Shown: positions 2,290 through 22,578, numbered from the stretch's first letter. The stretch is DNA of 56,552 nt from Chloroflexota bacterium (GCA_043818095.1 JBDRGD010000005.1:1-56552); one strand, 5' to 3'. The notes: generated by a model from the sequence alone, not told the origin. A program made the numbers and translations.

Positions 2290-4296
2290 TCAGCGTGGTT
2301 GTCGGACTCGTTCCTCATACTCCACCATGACCTCGCTTTTTCTCAGCTCGACGACGCGGTCGCGCAGGAGGGCGGCTTTCTCAAAGTCCAGCTTTTTCGC
2401 GGCGGCTTTCATCTGCGCTTCCAAATCCTTGATGAGCCGGGCGATTTCCTCCCGGCTGGGCGGGACGGCGGCGGTATAGTCGGCCCTGGTCTCCGCCACC
2501 GCTTTCACACGCTCCGTAATGTCCCGGATGGCCTTGCGGATGCCCTGCGGGGTGATACCGTGCTCCCGGTTATAGTCCTCCTGAACGCGGCGTCGGCGCG
2601 TTGTCTCGTCCATCGCCGCCTGCATGGAGCCGGTGACCGTGTCCGCGTACATGATAACGTGCCCGTCGATGTGGCGGGCGGCGCGACCCATCGTCTGGAT
2701 AAGCGCCTGCCGGGAGCGCAGGTAGCCCTCCTTGTCCGCGTCGAGAATCGCCACCAGGCTCACCTCCGGCAAATCCAAGCCCTCCCGCAGCAGGTTGATG
2801 CCGACCACGACGTCATAGACCCCGAGGCGCAGGTCCCGCAGTATCTCAATTCTTTCCAGCGTATCGATTTCCGAGTGCAGATAGTGGGTCTTGACGCCCA
2901 GCTCCAGGAGGTAATCGGCAAGCTCCTCCGCCATGCGCTTGGTCAGGGTGGTCACTAGGCAGCGCGTGCCCTTTTCTACGCGCTTCCGGATTTCCTCCAG
3001 CAGGTCGTCGACTTGCCCCTTCGTCGGCTTGATTTCAATCGTGGGCTCGAGGAGGCCGGTGGGGCGGATAAGCTGCTCCACCACCTGGGTGCTGTGGCTG
3101 AGCTCGTAGTCCGCGGGGGTGGCGGAGGTATAAACGACCTGATTGATGCGCTCCTGGAACTCGTCGAAGTTCAGGGGTCGATTGTCCAGCGCGGAGGGCA
3201 GGCGGAAGCCGTAGTCCACCAGCGTTTCCTTGCGGGAGCGGTCGCCGCGGTACATGCCGCGTATCTGCGGCAGGGTCATGTGCGACTCGTCGATAAAGAG
3301 GAGGAAGTCCTCCGGGAAGTAGTCCACCAGCGTCCAGGGGGCGCTGCCGGGGGCGCGCCCGGCGAGGTGGCGGGAATAGTTCTCCACGGAGTTGCAGTAG
3401 CCGGCCTCCCGCAGCATTTCCAGGTCATAGCTGGTGCGCGCTTCGAGGCGCGCCGCTTCCAGCAGCTTGCCCTGCTGCTTTAGCTCGGCGAGGCGCTCTT
3501 TCAGCTCCTGCTCGATGCTCTCCAGGGCACGCATGAGCTTGTCGTGGGAGGTCACGAAGTGGCGGGCGGGATAGATATCGATTTCCTCCAGCTCGCCGAG
3601 GAGCTCCCCGGTCAGGGGGTCGATGTTGATGATACGCTCGATGTCATCGCCGAAGAACTCGATACGCAAGGCGATTTCTTCATAAGAAGGCTGGACTTCC
3701 AGGGTGTCCCCGCGGATGCGGAACCGGCCCCGGGTAAAGTCCATGTCGTTCCGCTCGTACTGCATGTCCACGAGTCGGCGCAGCAGCTTCTGCCGATTGA
3801 ACGTCTCCCCCTTTTTCAGGCTGACGACGAAGCTGCGGTACTCCTCCGGCTCGCCGAGGCCGTAGATGCAGGAAACCGAAGCGACGATGACCACGTCCCG
3901 CCGCTCGAAGAGGGCGCGGGTGGCGGCGTGGCGCAGCTTGTCGATTTCGTCATTGATGTCGATGTCTTTCTCGATATAGGTGTCGGTGCGGGGGAGGTAA
4001 GCCTCCGGCTGGTAGTAGTCGTAATAGCTGACGAAGTATTCCACGGCATTGTGGGGGAAGAAGTCCCGGAACTCGCTGGAGAGCTGGGCGGCGAGGGTCT
4101 TGTTGTGGCAGATGACCAGCGCGGGGCGCTGCACGCGGGCGATGACGTTGGCCATGGTGAAGGTCTTGCCGCTGCCGGTGACACCCAGCAGGGTCTGGTG
4201 CTTTTCCCGCCTCTCCAGCCCCGCCACCAGCTTGTCCACCGCCTGCGGCTGGTCGCCGGTCATCTGGAAGTCGGCCACGATTTCAAACTGCGGCAT
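2290..4296 (-). CDS. uvrB: Excinuclease ABC subunit B
   Basis: 668 aa; [10 protein letters not shown] Walker A, helicase motifs, C-terminal UVR domain ([18 protein letters not shown]). Confidence 0.97.
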
Positions 4297-4558
4297 GTTA
4301 CTGCGGCGGAGCGGTGATGATGGCGGCGAGGACTACGCCGAACAAGGCGCCGAAAATAGCCCCTGACCAGGGGTTCCCGGTGGCCCCTCAGCCCGGGGCG
4401 CCGCCGCGGCTCCGGGCTCTCCCGAGCAGCCAGCCCAGCCCCCCGCCGATGATGCCGCCGATGACCATGAATAAATACGTCATTGTCCGCCCCCCTGTTT
4501 CCAGTATATCCTTATTTCGGGGGCGCGGGCAAAGTCCGGCGGGACGTCGGGGGGTATT

Positions 4559-4825
4559 TTAGCTTTTTTCCGCCTGTTCCCGGATGTCCCGGAGGCATTC
4601 CCAGAGGTAAGCGGCTTCCCGGTCATGGGGCGCCGTGGCGAGCATGCGGTAAACATTATCGAAGCGCCAGCGGCTGCCTATCTCCCCGGAGGCGGCAATC
4701 TCCCGCCCCCTTCTTACCGCCCAGCGCGTCTGCATCGGCTTGATGACGGTAAGGCTGAAGGCGATGACCGCGCCCAACGCCAGCAGCAGCAATATGTAGA
4801 AGAGTAACCATGTCTGCATGTACAT
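4559..4825 (-). CDS. Hypothetical small membrane-anchored protein
   Basis: 88 aa with a single N-terminal hydrophobic helix (WLLFYILLLLALGAVIAFSL). Co-oriented with uvrB. No family recognised. Confidence 0.45.
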   Translation of the reverse strand: MYMQTWLLFYILLLLALGAVIAFSLTVIKPMQTRWAVRRGREIAASGEIGSRWRFDNVYRMLATAPHDREAAYLWECLRDIREQAEKS

Positions 4826-4900
4826 AACAGTCCCCCTCAGTTTTAGTGTAACGTCCCCAGTTTAACCGCCCGCCCCGCGGCGGACAACGAGGTTAACTTT

Positions 4901-4953
4901 GGGGTGGGGTGGGGGGAGACATATAAAAAGGAGGATAGCGAGGTGGGGAGGGA
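4901..4953. repeat. G-rich direct repeat, copy A (downstream flank of TA cassette)
   Basis: GGGGTGGGGTGGGGGGAGAC-ATA-TAAAAAGGAG... The 20-nt core is identical to 5709-5728 and the following TAAAAAGGAG block is also shared. Confidence 0.75.
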
Positions 4954-4973
4954 CAAAAAGAAAGCGTCCTTAA

Positions 4974-5267
4974 TTACGGGTGCGGGGTAATCGCAATGAT
5001 GGTGATTGTTTCTTTTGCCGGTCCGTAATACCAGAAGACCCGGTAAGCAGCCGGGGTCTTTTGCTGGGCATAGGATTCAAAGACCTTTTCGCCGTTGGGG
5101 CCCTCTAAACTGAAGAACTGGTGGGACTGGAGACTGTTGTGTCTGGGATTCTGTGATAATAATTGAATAGTTTTCCTAACCGCTTTGTAGGGGATGTTTT
5201 GGGAAAGGGAAGCCTTAAGTAATGCGCAGGTCTTTTCGGCTTCTTCCGTCCATTCTATCTGAAACAA
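4974..5267 (-). CDS. Type II toxin, RelE/ParE superfamily-like
   Basis: 97 aa, 11 nt downstream of an AbrB-type antitoxin. The C-terminal AYRVFWYYGP...ITIIAITPHP pattern is typical of RelE/ParE-fold toxins. Confidence 0.75.
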   Translation of the reverse strand: MFQIEWTEEAEKTCALLKASLSQNIPYKAVRKTIQLLSQNPRHNSLQSHQFFSLEGPNGEKVFESYAQQKTPAAYRVFWYYGPAKETITIIAITPHP

Positions 5268-5278
5268 GACCGCAGACC

Positions 5279-5560
5279 CTATAAACTATCGAGGTCAACC
5301 CTGGAAACCCTGCCGTCAGCAGCGTCAGCCAGCCCGCGCCGGACGGATACAATGGCTTCTGGGTTTTGGAATAACCACGCCTCGGAAGCCGGAATGGTCA
5401 CCTGGGGGTCCAGAACGATTTGCCCAAGACTGTTCGAGTAGACATGATAGGTGATGCCTTCCTTTACCACGGTTTTGGGCAGGACCACCCTCTTTTTGGC
5501 ATCCGGCTTCACGCCTTCCGCTATCTTTTTAAGATTGTCATCTTTGATGATGGTTGTCAT
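5279..5560 (-). CDS. Type II antitoxin, AbrB/MazE/SpoVT-type DNA-binding domain
   Basis: MTTIIKDDNLKKIAEGVKPDAKKRVVLPKTVV... then EAWLFQNPEAIVSVRRGLADAADG. ATG at 5560 is preferred over the track's TTG at 5608, because a promoter sits at 5580-5608 and a GGGGA RBS lies 7 nt upstream of 5560. Confidence 0.78.
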   Translation of the reverse strand: MTTIIKDDNLKKIAEGVKPDAKKRVVLPKTVVKEGITYHVYSNSLGQIVLDPQVTIPASEAWLFQNPEAIVSVRRGLADAADGRVSRVDLDSL

Positions 5561-5579
5561 GTTCCAATCCCCATTTATT

Positions 5580-5608
5580 AATATATCCTTTGTGGGACGG
5601 ATTGTCAA
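5580..5608 (-). promoter_or_regulatory. Sigma70-like promoter of the TA operon with flanking GTCCCAC repeats
   Basis: Reverse strand reads GTCCCAC-TTGACA-ATCC-GTCCCAC-AAAGGA-TATATT. This gives -35 TTGACA, a 17-nt spacer and -10 TATATT. The 7-nt direct repeat sits on both sides of the -35 and is operator-like. Confidence 0.55.
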
Positions 5609-5635
5609 GTGGGACTAGCCCACATTTCCTTGTCT

Positions 5636-5690
5636 TTGCGAGCGCAGCGAAGCAATCTGGAGATTGCCGCGGGGCGGAAGCCCCTCGCAA
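5636..5690. repeat. Structured palindromic (REP/MITE-like) intergenic element
   Basis: Outer stem TTGCGAG (5636-42) / CTCGCAA (5684-90) encloses two hairpins: GCAATCT-GG-AGATTGC (5652-67) and GGGGC-GGAA-GCCCC (5671-84). It translates to the CERSEAIS / ASLRSQRQ-type pseudo-peptides typical of intergenic repeat families. Confidence 0.5.
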
Positions 5691-5708
5691 TGACGGAATT
5701 TAAGAGCG

Positions 5709-5762
5709 GGGGTGGGGTGGGGGGAGACCTCTAAAAAGGAGAGCGCTACTGGAGGGAGAAGA
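5709..5762. repeat. G-rich direct repeat, copy B (upstream flank of TA cassette)
   Basis: GGGGTGGGGTGGGGGGAGAC-CTC-TAAAAAGGAG... matches 4901-4953. Confidence 0.75.
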
Positions 5763-5814
5763 TGGGGCAAGAGTTTGTTATCGGCATGATTAAGCACCAT
5801 CTATTATCCAAAGG

Positions 5815-6840
5815 CTAAAATTTGAAAATTGTGTCTGAATCGAAAAAGGATATCTTATGTTTGTAAAAAATTTCATTGAAACGTGCTAAATCCTTAGAAA
5901 TCTGTCCTTGATTTTTTTCGTCGATATGGATAGCAATAGCCAATTCTTTATTACTTCTACGGCTTATCGCATTGACAATATGTGCATCTTGGGTTGATAA
6001 AGACGAGCCATAAATTATTAATTTATTATTGGAATCACGGAATTCTCTCAACGCAAAGGTTAAATAATCATTACTGCGGATTGCTTCTAACTTCTTTTCA
6101 GGTTTACCCTCGCTAATGAATAGAGGGATAATACCATCTACAATTGCTTCATCGATAAGGTCTATGAGTTCGTTTTTATTACCACGACGGATTATTTTTA
6201 CTGTGTGTATTGGTTCTTCAAAAATAAAAAGCGCACCATGAAGATAGTGGATATGTTTATTTGGATATTCATCGCTATCCATGAATTGGTTAAATCGGGC
6301 ATCCGCTTCATATTCTTTCCAGAAATAATCGCTGTATTTTTGCTTCGTTTTATCCTTCTCACATCTGTCCTTCACCAACATAATAATATGATATAAGAAA
6401 AGGTCGTAGTTCAATGTATAAATATCGCCAAATTCATCAAGTTGTATAGCTATTCGAGTTAATTGAGCTTGATTAATATTTGAATATGAAGGGTGGTTGC
6501 TTTTAATGGACTTTATTAATCCGTTTCTTAAAATATCAATAGCACGTATAATTCCATCACTAGGTTTTATCTTAAATAATTTGTTAACTTCCAGAGCATT
6601 AATCAGTGTTTCTTGGATGAGTTCGAAGTTATTATTATGAAAGCTAGTGAAAATCTCTTGGTCTTCAAATTCTAGATTATCAACAAACTTTTGGAACAAT
6701 GATTCATATTTTAAATGACCTACTAAATTAATTGAAAATCCGTTACCTAATAACAAATCAGCGCCAATAAAATCGGGAGAAATCTCTGACCAATTATGGA
6801 TTTTAATGCCTTCCTTTAATTTGCCGGGATATATATCCAT
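5815..6840 (-). CDS. DUF4917-family protein (SIR2-like fold suspected)
   Basis: 341 aa. LLLGNGFS near the N-terminus, IYTLNYD mid-protein, then HYLHGALFIF and PLFISEGKPEKKLEAIRSNDYL, which match my recollection of DUF4917 family motifs and echo the SIR2_2 GxGxS / TTNYD / HLHG pattern. Strikingly AT-rich against a GC-rich background. ATG lies 6 nt after the stop of the upstream GC-rich gene. Confidence 0.8.
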   Translation of the reverse strand: MDIYPGKLKEGIKIHNWSEISPDFIGADLLLGNGFSINLVGHLKYESLFQKFVDNLEFEDQEIFTSFHNNNFELIQETLINALEVNKLFKIKPSDGIIRAIDILRNGLIKSIKSNHPSYSNINQAQLTRIAIQLDEFGDIYTLNYDLFLYHIIMLVKDRCEKDKTKQKYSDYFWKEYEADARFNQFMDSDEYPNKHIHYLHGALFIFEEPIHTVKIIRRGNKNELIDLIDEAIVDGIIPLFISEGKPEKKLEAIRSNDYLTFALREFRDSNNKLIIYGSSLSTQDAHIVNAISRRSNKELAIAIHIDEKNQGQISKDLARFNEIFYKHKISFFDSDTIFKF

Positions 6841-6846
6841 TCCCTC

Positions 6847-7287
6847 CTACACCTCCAGCAAATCAAACCCACTCCTCTCATCCGGCAGGCGGGCGGCTTT
6901 CGCCCCCGTGATTTCCGTGACTATCGCCTCCGCCACCAGCCACGTTTTAACCCCGGGGCGCAGGCAGCCGGCGGCGGCTTTGCCCGCCCGCCCCAGCGCC
7001 GCGTGGATGTGCAGCACCGGCTTGCCGTCTTTGTCCGGGGCGATGATGCCCGCCCCCACCACCTCGTGCGCGCCGTCCACGGGGAGAAGGAGGGGGTCGG
7101 GGGGCATCTCCTCCGTCCTGCGCGGGCCCGCCACGATTTCTCCACTCCCGACTCCGCCCACCAGGACAACCTGCGCCACCCTGATGCCCTGCCCCGCCGC
7201 GAACTGCTCCAGGCAGTCCGGGATAACGTCGCCGTCTTCCAGCCGGAGCACGAAGACCCGCCCCAGCCTGCCTTCACTCGCTTTCAT
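6847..7287 (-). CDS. PPC (DUF296) domain DNA-binding protein
   Basis: MKASEGRLGRVFVLRLEDGDVIPDCLEQFAAGQGIRVAQVVLVGGVGSG... ATG at 7287 is preceded by AAGGAGG, so the track's longer N-terminus to 7353 is rejected. Confidence 0.82.
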   Translation of the reverse strand: MKASEGRLGRVFVLRLEDGDVIPDCLEQFAAGQGIRVAQVVLVGGVGSGEIVAGPRRTEEMPPDPLLLPVDGAHEVVGAGIIAPDKDGKPVLHIHAALGRAGKAAAGCLRPGVKTWLVAEAIVTEITGAKAARLPDERSGFDLLEV

Positions 7288-7367
7288 CGGAGACCTCCTT
7301 ATTGCTTTTCCAGTATAGCCGCCGACCCCGCTGGTTGCAATCGGCGCTTTCACCTATAATAAGGAGA

Positions 7368-8093
7368 ATGGCCAGCGAAAGTATTATAAAACTGCTTACC
7401 GGGGCGGGCGTCGGCTCGCGGCGGAAAGTTGCCGCGCTCATCAAGGCGGGCGAGGTAACCGTCAACGGGGAGGCCGTTACCGGCTTCAACCACCCGGTGG
7501 ACGCCGCCCGTGACGAAGTCACCGTCTCCGGAAAGCCCGTGGCGCTGCGCGGGGAAAAGGTGGTCTACCTGCTGATGCACAAGCCGGCGGGAGTGCTTTC
7601 CACGGCAGAAGACGAGCGGGGGCGGCGCACCGTGCTGGACCTCCTGCCCGCCCGGTACCGTCGCTTGCGCCTCTACCCGGTGGGGCGGCTGGACCTGGAC
7701 AGCACGGGGCTGCTGCTGCTCACCAACGACGGCGACCTCACCTACCGGCTGACCCATCCCCGCTACGAGATGCCCAGGGAATACCTCGTGCAGACCGTCG
7801 GCACGCTGAGTCGCCAGGATATTGAGCGACTGGAGGCGGGACTGAACCTGGAGGACGGCAAAACGAGCCCGGCGCGGGTGCGCCCCGTGGTGGCGGACCC
7901 CTTCGATTACAGCATCGTCATCCATGAAGGGAAAAAGCGGCAGGTGCGGCGCATGTTCGGCGCGCTGGGGCACCCGGTGAAAGCGCTGAAAAGGGTGCGC
8001 CTGGGGAGCCTGCAGCTCGGCGCCCTGAAAGAAGGCGAGGTGCGGGAACTGACCGCCGCGGAGGTCAAAGCTTTGCGCGGCAAGCCGAAATAA
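7368..8093 (+). CDS. rRNA pseudouridine synthase (RsuA/RluB family) with N-terminal S4 domain
   Basis: MASESIIKLLTGAGVGSRRKVAALIKAGEVTVNG (S4), and GRLDLDSTGLLLLTNDG catalytic Asp motif. Confidence 0.9.
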   Translation: MASESIIKLLTGAGVGSRRKVAALIKAGEVTVNGEAVTGFNHPVDAARDEVTVSGKPVALRGEKVVYLLMHKPAGVLSTAEDERGRRTVLDLLPARYRRLRLYPVGRLDLDSTGLLLLTNDGDLTYRLTHPRYEMPREYLVQTVGTLSRQDIERLEAGLNLEDGKTSPARVRPVVADPFDYSIVIHEGKKRQVRRMFGALGHPVKALKRVRLGSLQLGALKEGEVRELTAAEVKALRGKPK

Positions 8094-22381: not shown

Positions 22382-22429
22382 ATTCCAGGGGGTAAAGGTG
22401 TGGTTTGAGAGAATCGCGACGCGGGGGGC

Positions 22430-22458
22430 TTGAAAAATGACGTTTTCGGGTGTATAAT
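22430..22458 (+). promoter_or_regulatory. Near-consensus sigma70 promoter
   Basis: TTGAAA-17 nt-TATAAT (with TG at -15/-14), about 120 nt upstream of the Zn-ribbon gene. Confidence 0.65.
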
Positions 22459-22578
22459 GATTTGTGATAGTTACAGTTAAGGTTATTACAAGCTTCCAGG
22501 AATCCTGTTGGCACAGAACCGCCTCAAGTATTGGATGACCGGGCTCTAACTAGAATAACAGAGAGAGGAGGTCATCCG

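Follow-up and report, generated by a model that had tools for sequence, protein, structure and literature searches.

The islet described here lies between the gene for a PCC/DUF296 protein and uvrB in a Dehalococcoidales genome, one contig piece of which, 56,552 nt in length, was analyzed (the window; positions are counted from its first letter). It carries a DUF4917 gene and a candidate toxin-antitoxin (TA) pair. We consider it probable, at roughly 70%, that the region from the 3′ end of the PCC gene to uvrB is a core-genome hotspot of defense genes in Dehalococcoidales, in which a first slot (slot 1) holds variable cargo, a second slot (slot 2) holds an older TA module, and spacers set the modules apart. 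In this reading, the DUF4917 gene is horizontally acquired, low-GC cargo of slot 1. Dehalococcoidales are largely uncultured, and to our knowledge almost nothing is known about their defense against phages. Core-genome defense hotspots are a known kind of locus; the present one would belong to an uncultured group, and its coupling to the anchor gene and its spacer repeats, if confirmed, could make it a distinct variant.

A scan with the PCC protein, taking one genome per species, gave 64 related loci, mostly in metagenome-assembled genomes (MAGs) of Dehalococcoidales. Two closer relatives, L119 (83% identical) and L120 (82%), were found by a PCC protein search; L-numbers label the related loci and genomes throughout. 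The hotspot comparison is one between species of an uncultured order, covering ~30 related Dehalococcoidales genomes.

Variable cargo past the PCC gene

The order ruvC-ruvA-PCC-(1–4 kb)-uvrB, all on the same strand, is found in 15 loci and also in L087, L119, and L120. UvrB is conserved in those loci with 75–85% amino acid identity and is encoded 1–4 kb from PCC, and the PCC protein is 60–83% identical across ~70 related loci. The last 30 nt of the PCC gene are alike in all related loci, and divergence sets in right past the stop codon. Within PCC, the mean pairwise nucleotide identity among 27 genomes is 0.65–0.83; beginning 18 nt beyond the stop, it is 0.28, and homology between relatives is gone within ~17 nt of the stop codon. 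When the downstream open reading frames (ORFs) of 80 aa or more in 28 genomes were clustered, 53 ORFs fell into 47 clusters; nearly every genome has another gene at this place. The first gene past PCC is low in GC (0.26–0.45). These observations agree with an earlier note on this DNA, which had read the region as a hotspot rather than a single operon and had proposed to look for alternative cargo between DUF296 and uvrB. The DUF4917 gene is present in 0 of the 64 loci.

The cargo in the slot of relatives includes AbiTii (1e-43), TIR_2 (a Zn-ribbon-TIR protein), N6_N4 methylases with partner genes, a Type II methyltransferase, DUF5343 with DUF5677, DUF3800, HNH, PDC-M41A/B (2e-73 and 1e-118), and a TIR-like TPR protein. 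The enrichment for defense is apparent from these listed families and not from a statistic against the genome background. Several cargo families have no annotation. One of them, of 306–323 aa with the N-terminus YWLCPLFYFE, follows PCC directly in three genomes (L001:4385–5353, L003:10448–11368, and L050:10454–11425) and gives no Pfam or PADLOC match; its position makes it a candidate for a new defense gene. The slot cargo of L002, L036, and L061 is likewise without annotation. A site that can be located from PCC and uvrB, with other small cargo in nearly every genome, is a cheap "guilt by location" handle for defense genes.

The start of the cargo relative to the PCC stop codon should be noted. 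Slot 1 would begin right past this stop codon: the DUF4917 start is 6 nt away, and the stop codon lies within purine-rich motifs resembling Shine-Dalgarno sequences. In seven relatives (L001, L002, L003, L037, L087, L119, and L120), the cargo also starts at most 11 nt from the PCC stop or overlaps with it. This proximity suggests that cargo is expressed through PCC, and the DUF4917 gene is probably cotranscribed and translationally coupled with the PCC gene. The probable start of PCC itself is ATG 7287, which gives 146 aa, and the 146-aa form is present in the protein collection (P0241); exact-protein look-ups with the 168-aa form of PCC and with the DUF4917 protein gave no match.

The array is bordered by uvrB at one end and, at the opposite end, by PCC, rluB, and a Na/H exchanger gene. 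A non-exhaustive scan of the islet genes, of 10 more ORFs of the window, and of the genes listed for L087, L119, and L120 gave no hallmark of an integrase, transposase, or mobile element, in line with the statement of the earlier note that the window has no integrase or transposase. No tRNA gene is found in or near the islet. Rfam matches at E ≤ 10 in 4200–7400 are limited to three microRNA/snoRNA matches at chance level, with no family in the islet. Slot-1 turnover would be most simply accounted for if DNA that had been taken up recombined within the conserved flanks, no dedicated recombinase being involved. The idea that the 3′ end of PCC is additionally conserved as a site of recombination was considered and rejected, since its third-codon identity (0.58) is within the range elsewhere in the gene (0.38–0.62).

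Core defense hotspots are known as cDHS1/cDHS2 of Pseudomonas aeruginosa (PMC10250203) and as pan-genome defense hotspots of E. coli (PMC10121019). The islet resembles them in its fixed core marker genes, genome-specific content, defense genes, low GC, and lack of an obvious mobile element. However, it spans 1–4 kb and usually holds one or two genes, whereas the median of the known ones is 26 kb. It also differs in that the first gene often starts at most 11 nt from the anchor stop and in that C-rich spacer repeats and elements like miniature inverted-repeat transposable elements (MITEs) lie between modules.

The DUF4917 protein and the toxin-antitoxin pair

On the minus strand, the islet and its anchors read PCC/DUF296, DUF4917, the spacer with repeat copy B, a palindrome, a promoter, a 93-aa gene, a 97-aa gene, the spacer with repeat copy A, tm88, a small split gene, and uvrB, so the co-orientation of all elements noted before is evident in the gene order. 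The mean GC of the window is ~62%. Three compositional classes, also recognized before, are distinguished: the DUF4917 gene has GC 0.32 and third-codon-position GC (GC3) 0.29, the TA genes GC 0.48–0.52 and GC3 0.57–0.63, and the host genes PCC, uvrB, and tm88 GC 0.60–0.69 and GC3 0.79–0.86.

The DUF4917 protein scores 169 bits against PF16263 (cut-off 28), with residues 29–337 on model positions 1–307 of 311, and matches PDC-S21 of PADLOC over residues 13–338 (E = 4.8e-81). PDC-S21 is one of 145 "phage defence candidates" (bioRxiv 10.1101/2024.01.29.577857). Judging from the AlphaFold2 (AF2) model, which has a mean predicted local distance difference test score (pLDDT) of 90.6, the fold is predicted to be SIR2-like. 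In a Foldseek search the model matches the SIR2 subunit of SIR2-HerA (E = 5e-10, probability 1.00, template modeling (TM) score ~0.5), ThsA (7e-4), and KomC (1e-3), and deacetylating sirtuins are far weaker matches (E > 0.03). Some DUF4917 homologues also match PF13289 (SIR2_2). G32-N33-G34-F35-S36, Y145, D146, H201, and G202 are invariant in 54 homologues, and T142 and N144 are nearly so; the motifs are GNGFS, TLNYD ((N)YD, 144–146), and LHG (HG, 201–202). The conserved Asn and His are the presumed counterparts of the catalytic Asn and His of ThsA/SIR2.

The protein thus shares its predicted fold and the conserved GNGFS, TLNYD, and LHG motifs with the SIR2 NADase effectors (ThsA of Thoeris, SIR2-HerA/Nezha, DSR, and KomC). 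It differs from them in that identity is 9–16%, it belongs to a separate Pfam family, and it has a single domain with no HerA, SLOG, TIR, or Argonaute partner nearby. By analogy with the SIR2 defense families, its product is most likely an NAD+-consuming abortive-infection effector. The nearest homologue among 5.8 billion proteins is 58% identical. In another Chloroflexota MAG (L086), a DUF4917 homologue is located alone between dnaX and gap. Distant relatives (27–32% identity) are found on 24 viral or proviral IMG/VR contigs (L095–L118), and phrog_30889, a PHROG without known function, matches the window protein at 1e-37.

The genes of the TA pair are 11 nt apart in all genomes and always occur together, in four different genomic contexts. 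The promoter of their own that had been proposed is found, with 11 of 12 consensus positions matched. Operator-like GTGGGnnnnnCCCAC and GTCCCAC sites with GTGGG/CCCAC inverted repeats are located at the promoter, and this arrangement is kept in L003, L039, L042, and L120. ATG 5560 is the most likely start of the antitoxin, which then has 93 aa, because all homologues have 93 aa and the alternative TTG 5608 is inside the −35 box. The toxin starts with a Leu codon in all five genomes compared (TTG in the window).

The pair is a candidate type II TA module whose toxin has a RelE/ParE fold in the predicted structure. The AF2 model of the 97-aa toxin (pLDDT 91) matches YoeB/ParE 6n90 (E = 6e-5, TM 0.70/0.78) as well as RelE 1wmi and 4fxe, 7v6w, and 3oei, all with E < 1e-3 and with overall TM scores of 0.65–0.78. 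Against sequence models the toxin stays below threshold (RelE_StbE TIGR02385, E = 0.054, 14 bits against 27.9), and it gives no Pfam match and nothing relevant in a PDB profile search. Its family has 2789 members, with no Pfam domain among the best 120 listed. The antitoxin contains an AbrB/MazE-like KKRVVLPK stretch. It matches nothing in Pfam, NCBIfam, PHROGs, or PDB even at E ≤ 10, and neither PADLOC nor tblastn against plasmids was informative. When it was aligned by hhalign with AbrB, Abh, SpoVT, MazE, Kis, VapB, and PrlF sequences, residues 18–52 fell in the expected register with a probability of 5.5%. Of the AbrB/RelE label given to the pair in the earlier note, the RelE part is therefore retained for the predicted fold and not at the level of sequence models, and the AbrB part is not demonstrated. 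The pair is similar to RelBE, YefM-YoeB, and ParDE in that a small gene precedes a ~95-aa toxin gene by 11 nt and inverted repeats lie in the promoter, as well as in the toxin model; it is different in that the toxin fails the curated sequence models and the antitoxin matches no known family.

The same TA pair is located between cargo and uvrB in five relatives (L003, L039, L042, L087, and L120). Its pairwise identities of 63–68, 74–77, and 81–85% correspond to 68–73, 76–78, and 90–94% for PCC. The identity of the pair tracks PCC and ruvA, which indicates mostly vertical descent, and the pair is an older, slower-moving resident rather than a freshly swapped cassette. The idea of a swapped TA cassette holds only in part: the pair keeps the same place in five relatives and tracks the host, but it is present in L120 and absent from the close relative L119. 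Elsewhere, it occurs after uvrB beside a DUF5677 gene and, in another genome, beside a DarT gene. The TA and DUF4917 modules are independent, because each is found without the other. Slot 2 would accordingly be a TA module with an autoregulated-looking promoter that works independently of DUF4917. Both modules offer compact test cases, one a single-gene SIR2-like candidate (PDC-S21) and the other a ~2800-member toxin family with a predicted RelE/ParE fold.

Spacers, palindrome, and rival explanations

The 20-nt G-rich core GGGGTGGGGTGGGGGGAGAC occurs in exactly two places in the window, 4901 and 5709, and none of 100 shuffles gave two. It is part of an ungapped repeat of 33 nt, identical at 31 positions, whose two copies flank the TA pair. 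The bracketing by a direct repeat described before is thus observed, but the length of ~50 nt given for it is too long, because the flanks beyond 33 nt have no significant likeness (141/1000 and 209/1000 shuffles score as well). The core does not flank cassettes elsewhere in the sequences compared. Only chance-like matches with up to 4 mismatches are found in the 64 related loci, and 21 exact matches in metagenome contigs all have unrelated flanks, so the repeat is no widespread element. Repeats of a comparable kind are observed in relatives: a dodecin gene in L001 is flanked by 83-nt repeats, and comparable but unrelated repeats are present in L008 and L061.

Both copies lie in C-rich, G-poor stretches of the coding strand. 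The 78 nt after the toxin stop contain 33 C and 6 G, and the 78-nt stretch with copy B contains 37 C and 8 G. Neither spacer is structured on either strand (z = −0.38 to +0.72; copy B, z = 0.26). The window has four such 78-nt stretches on the minus strand in 56 kb, each directly 3′ of a minus-strand ORF. A Rho-utilization (rut) site is characterized by ~80 nt of C-rich, G-poor, unstructured RNA right after a gene, and both spacers have these features. They are probably module-end elements of the Rho-dependent type, which most likely end the transcription of each module. The modules would be separated by one family of such spacers, of which the 33-nt repeat is the best-kept part of two. The two other stretches (1938–2029 and 22386–22468, minus-strand RNA) may likewise be sites of the terminator type. 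Hairpins of the attC or terminator kind were considered for the spacers and rejected (z ~0), and no T-run terminator is present there on the coding strand. Plus-strand small ORFs after each G-rich box (15 and 18 aa) were also dismissed as chance, their sequences being unlike each other.

Comparison with the two closest relatives is informative about the age of the two copies. Copy A can be aligned over its full length with the spacer that precedes tm88 in L119 (score 46, 0/1000 shuffles) and in part with that of L120 (score 42, 0/1000). This alignment suggests that copy A is native and old and that copy B is a paralogous copy, and the orthology of copy A with the tm88-upstream spacer identifies the repeats as inter-module spacers. 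L119 and L120 have the full synteny of the window, including the Na/H exchanger gene and rluB, and their slot 1 is filled by a gene for a 174-aa HExxH membrane protein. Homology of the window to both stops at 6849; it resumes at 4928, inside repeat A, for L119 (blastn) and at the TA operator for L120. L119 and L120 are 86% identical to each other as far as a C-rich box that follows the cargo, where L120 has the box, the TA pair, and a second copy of the box, and L119 has a single copy and no TA pair. They represent an empty and an occupied TA site bounded by a direct repeat, and they serve the question of how cargo is exchanged at hotspots lacking a recombinase. Since the spacers are direct repeats, deletion or addition of modules by recombination is possible; the pattern in L119 and L120 would fit with the repeats being a substrate for homologous recombination.

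The palindrome that had been proposed between the TA pair and the DUF4917 gene, of the repetitive extragenic palindrome (REP) or MITE kind, is confirmed. It is 63 nt long and folds with z = −2.86 (3/200 shuffles fold as well). Its terminal inverted repeats are GTCWTTGCGAG...CTCGCAATGAC (GTCTTTGCGAG and CTCGCAATGAC). Six further full copies (85–109 nt) and 34 end-motif matches are found at other intergenic places in the related loci, and the sequence indicates membership in a dispersed MITE-like family. With its terminal inverted repeats, stable fold, and dispersed relatives it resembles REP elements, bacterial interspersed mosaic elements (BIMEs), and MITEs; it differs in that the window has a single copy with no evident target-site duplication. 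We know of no cognate transposase for this family.

Other explanations of the spacer repeats have to be weighed against the hotspot with variable cargo and an older TA resident. The islet might be an integrase-less cassette array, in which modules are swapped by recombination at the spacers and the PCC stop codon and cargo carries short boundary pieces along. We hold this idea only tentatively. If true, it would account for the 33-nt repeat as well as for the remnant of the 3′ end of a 50-aa ORF (sm50) beside a second low-GC cassette, and a first slot expressed by PCC coupling would be a distinct mode of defense-gene turnover in Dehalococcoidales. It is rather unlikely that the repeat is a scar of the arrival of DUF4917, whose cassette would have come from a TA-less relative with cargo abutting the tm88 promoter, like L119, would have brought ~33 nt of this boundary along, and would have been joined, illegitimately or via the MITE, upstream of the resident TA pair. 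The nativeness of copy A upstream of tm88, the existence of TA-less relatives with the order cargo-spacer-tm88 (L119, L037, and L061), and the position of copy B on the DUF4917 side, followed by the MITE, are consistent with such a scar. So is a second case at the left end of the window, where the sm50 remnant is located between rsgA and a low-GC methylase gene; in L120, L091, and L087, variable genes come right after the small ORF past uvrB, and no rsgA intervenes. However, in L120, whose cargo is another one, a GTCTCC(A)CCCCCC box likewise directly precedes the TA operator, so a box at the position of copy B may be older than DUF4917. The 31/33 identity would be explained equally well if gene conversion had acted between two old spacers, and we know of no donor genome. 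It is quite improbable that the 33-nt repeats are attachment sites for a site-specific recombination system acting in trans, in an array like a cluster of attC sites lacking integron-integrases (CALIN). A repeat does follow each module, direct repeats bracket the TA pair in the window and in L120 with L119 as the "empty" form having one copy, and the repeats are more alike within than between genomes, as in chromosomal integrons. But the tested window ORFs and the gene lists of L087, L119, and L120 contain no recombinase, the repeats, unlike attC, show no tendency to form hairpins (z = −0.4 to +0.7), their exact sequence is private to this genome, and the TA pair looks vertically inherited. 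The islet does not qualify as an integron or a CALIN: it shares with them a row of promoter-poor or self-contained cassettes each with a repeat, the greater likeness of repeats within a genome, and a first cassette expressed from an upstream fixed point, but no IntI is found next to the array, and its repeats have neither the form of imperfect palindromes nor an evident GTTRRRY core.

The function of the modules also admits rival views. The earlier note had regarded SIR2-like plus TA as a plausible two-layer abortive-infection locus, and the two modules are indeed adjacent, co-oriented, and both in a defense hotspot. A single system of this kind is very improbable and is already largely refuted by distribution. 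The TA pair at this site has nine other neighbors in relatives and never DUF4917, it stands beside DUF5677 and DarT elsewhere, and the DUF4917 homologue of L086 is alone. Moreover, the TA pair has a separate promoter, a C-rich spacer and the palindrome lie between the modules, and GC3 is 0.29 in one and ~0.6 in the other. DUF4917 could alternatively be nondefensive, a protein deacetylase or another NAD-dependent housekeeping or niche enzyme in a permissive insertion site, which we judge unlikely. The only characterized DUF4917 protein, SliP of C. jejuni, is predicted to be sirtuin-like and was reported to be a deacetylase of the sirtuin type (PMC10421069), and some slot cargo is not recognizably defensive. 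Against this stand the best structural matches, which are defense SIR2 NADases and not deacetylating sirtuins, the PADLOC candidate match, the dominance of abortive-infection, TIR, and restriction-modification genes in the slot of relatives, and the DUF4917 relatives on viral contigs.

Several observations weigh against the hotspot with defense cargo in slot 1 and an older TA pair in slot 2. The closest relatives are only 82–83% identical in PCC, so no recent swap is directly observed. When the right edge of the DUF4917 replacement is placed at an ATAACAA motif that L119 and L120 also have, the placement is not significant (126/1000 shuffles). The count of the 33-mer covers 56 kb of the genome and is compatible with a repeat dispersed genome-wide, and the enrichment of MITE-like families around PCC (65% of matches in 27% of the sequence, p = 1e-10) is not normalized for intergenic length. 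The defense role of the islet genes is a prediction, PDC-S21 being a candidate, and the one studied DUF4917 protein was described as a secreted deacetylase. Some cargo looks nondefensive, namely the 174-aa HExxH membrane protein (L119/L120), Lactamase_B (L087), and a methyltransferase (L012).

Coordinates and neighboring features

Table 1. Features of the islet and its anchor genes in the window, in minus-strand order.
Feature	Position	Strand	Remarks
PCC/DUF296	6847–7287	minus	Pfam PCC, E = 1e-20; conserved left anchor of the proposed hotspot
PCC/cargo junction	6838–6862	minus	..CTGGAGGTG TAG GAGGGA ATG, read from the sequence
DUF4917 gene, 341 aa	5815–6840	minus	Pfam, E = 2e-49; probable variable-slot cargo
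Repeat copy B	5709–5741	minus	spacer after DUF4917, C-rich on the coding strand
MITE/REP-like palindrome	5632–5694	none	terminal inverted repeats and fold
TA promoter and operator-like sites	5580–5623	minus	TTGACA-17-TATATT at 5608–5580
Antitoxin candidate, 93 aa	5279–5560	minus	constant pairing with the 97-aa gene
Toxin candidate, 97 aa, TTG start	4974–5267	minus	predicted fold of the RelE/ParE/YoeB superfamily
Repeat copy A	4901–4933	minus	spacer separating the TA pair from the tm88 promoter
tm88 promoter-like site	4859–4887	minus	TTGTCC-17-TAAACT
tm88, 88-aa membrane protein	4559–4825	minus	semiconserved resident adjoining uvrB
uvrB	2290–4296	minus	conserved right anchor

Homologues of tm88 are located at the same place in nine relatives (L008, L014, L021 with two copies, L036, L037, L039, L061, L119, and L120). 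The promoter block upstream of it, ..CCCCGTTGTCC-17/18-TATACTT, is kept in seven of them (L008, L021, L037, L039, L061, L119, and L120). In L021 (12613–13241), tm88 is tandemly duplicated together with its upstream region, and a degenerate second copy is found in L008 (12240–12400 and 12997–13245). These duplications suggest that segmental duplication is common in the islet.

Another hotspot probably lies at the left end of the window, and it would have a direct repeat of its own that derives from a boundary. About 85 nt (680–770, minus), located just after rsgA, repeat the 3′ end of sm50, the ORF after uvrB (2166–2250); this remnant is 77% identical to the matching ORF of L120. A gene for an N4/N6 DNA methylase with 39% GC follows the remnant directly (1–591) and is cut off by the window edge. 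What comes after uvrB and the small ORF also varies among relatives, with a TA pair and DUF5677 in L091/L092 and with unknown genes and an AAA_15 ATPase gene in L087. In L120, uvrB is followed by a 210-aa gene with a duplicated 52-aa ORF around it.

The small split gene just upstream of uvrB (4298–4483, minus) encodes a two-helix membrane protein and has an in-frame TGA at 4388–4390. The in-frame TGA is also present in five other genomes (L120, L010, L036, L005, and L042). A hairpin with a GGUC loop and compensatory changes in the stem (4360–4373 in the window) always lies 15–22 nt past the TGA, and a Cys is often encoded a few residues before it. The combination of TGA and hairpin looks like a bacterial selenocysteine insertion sequence (SECIS), which would make the product a candidate small selenoprotein, or like a programmed read-through site.

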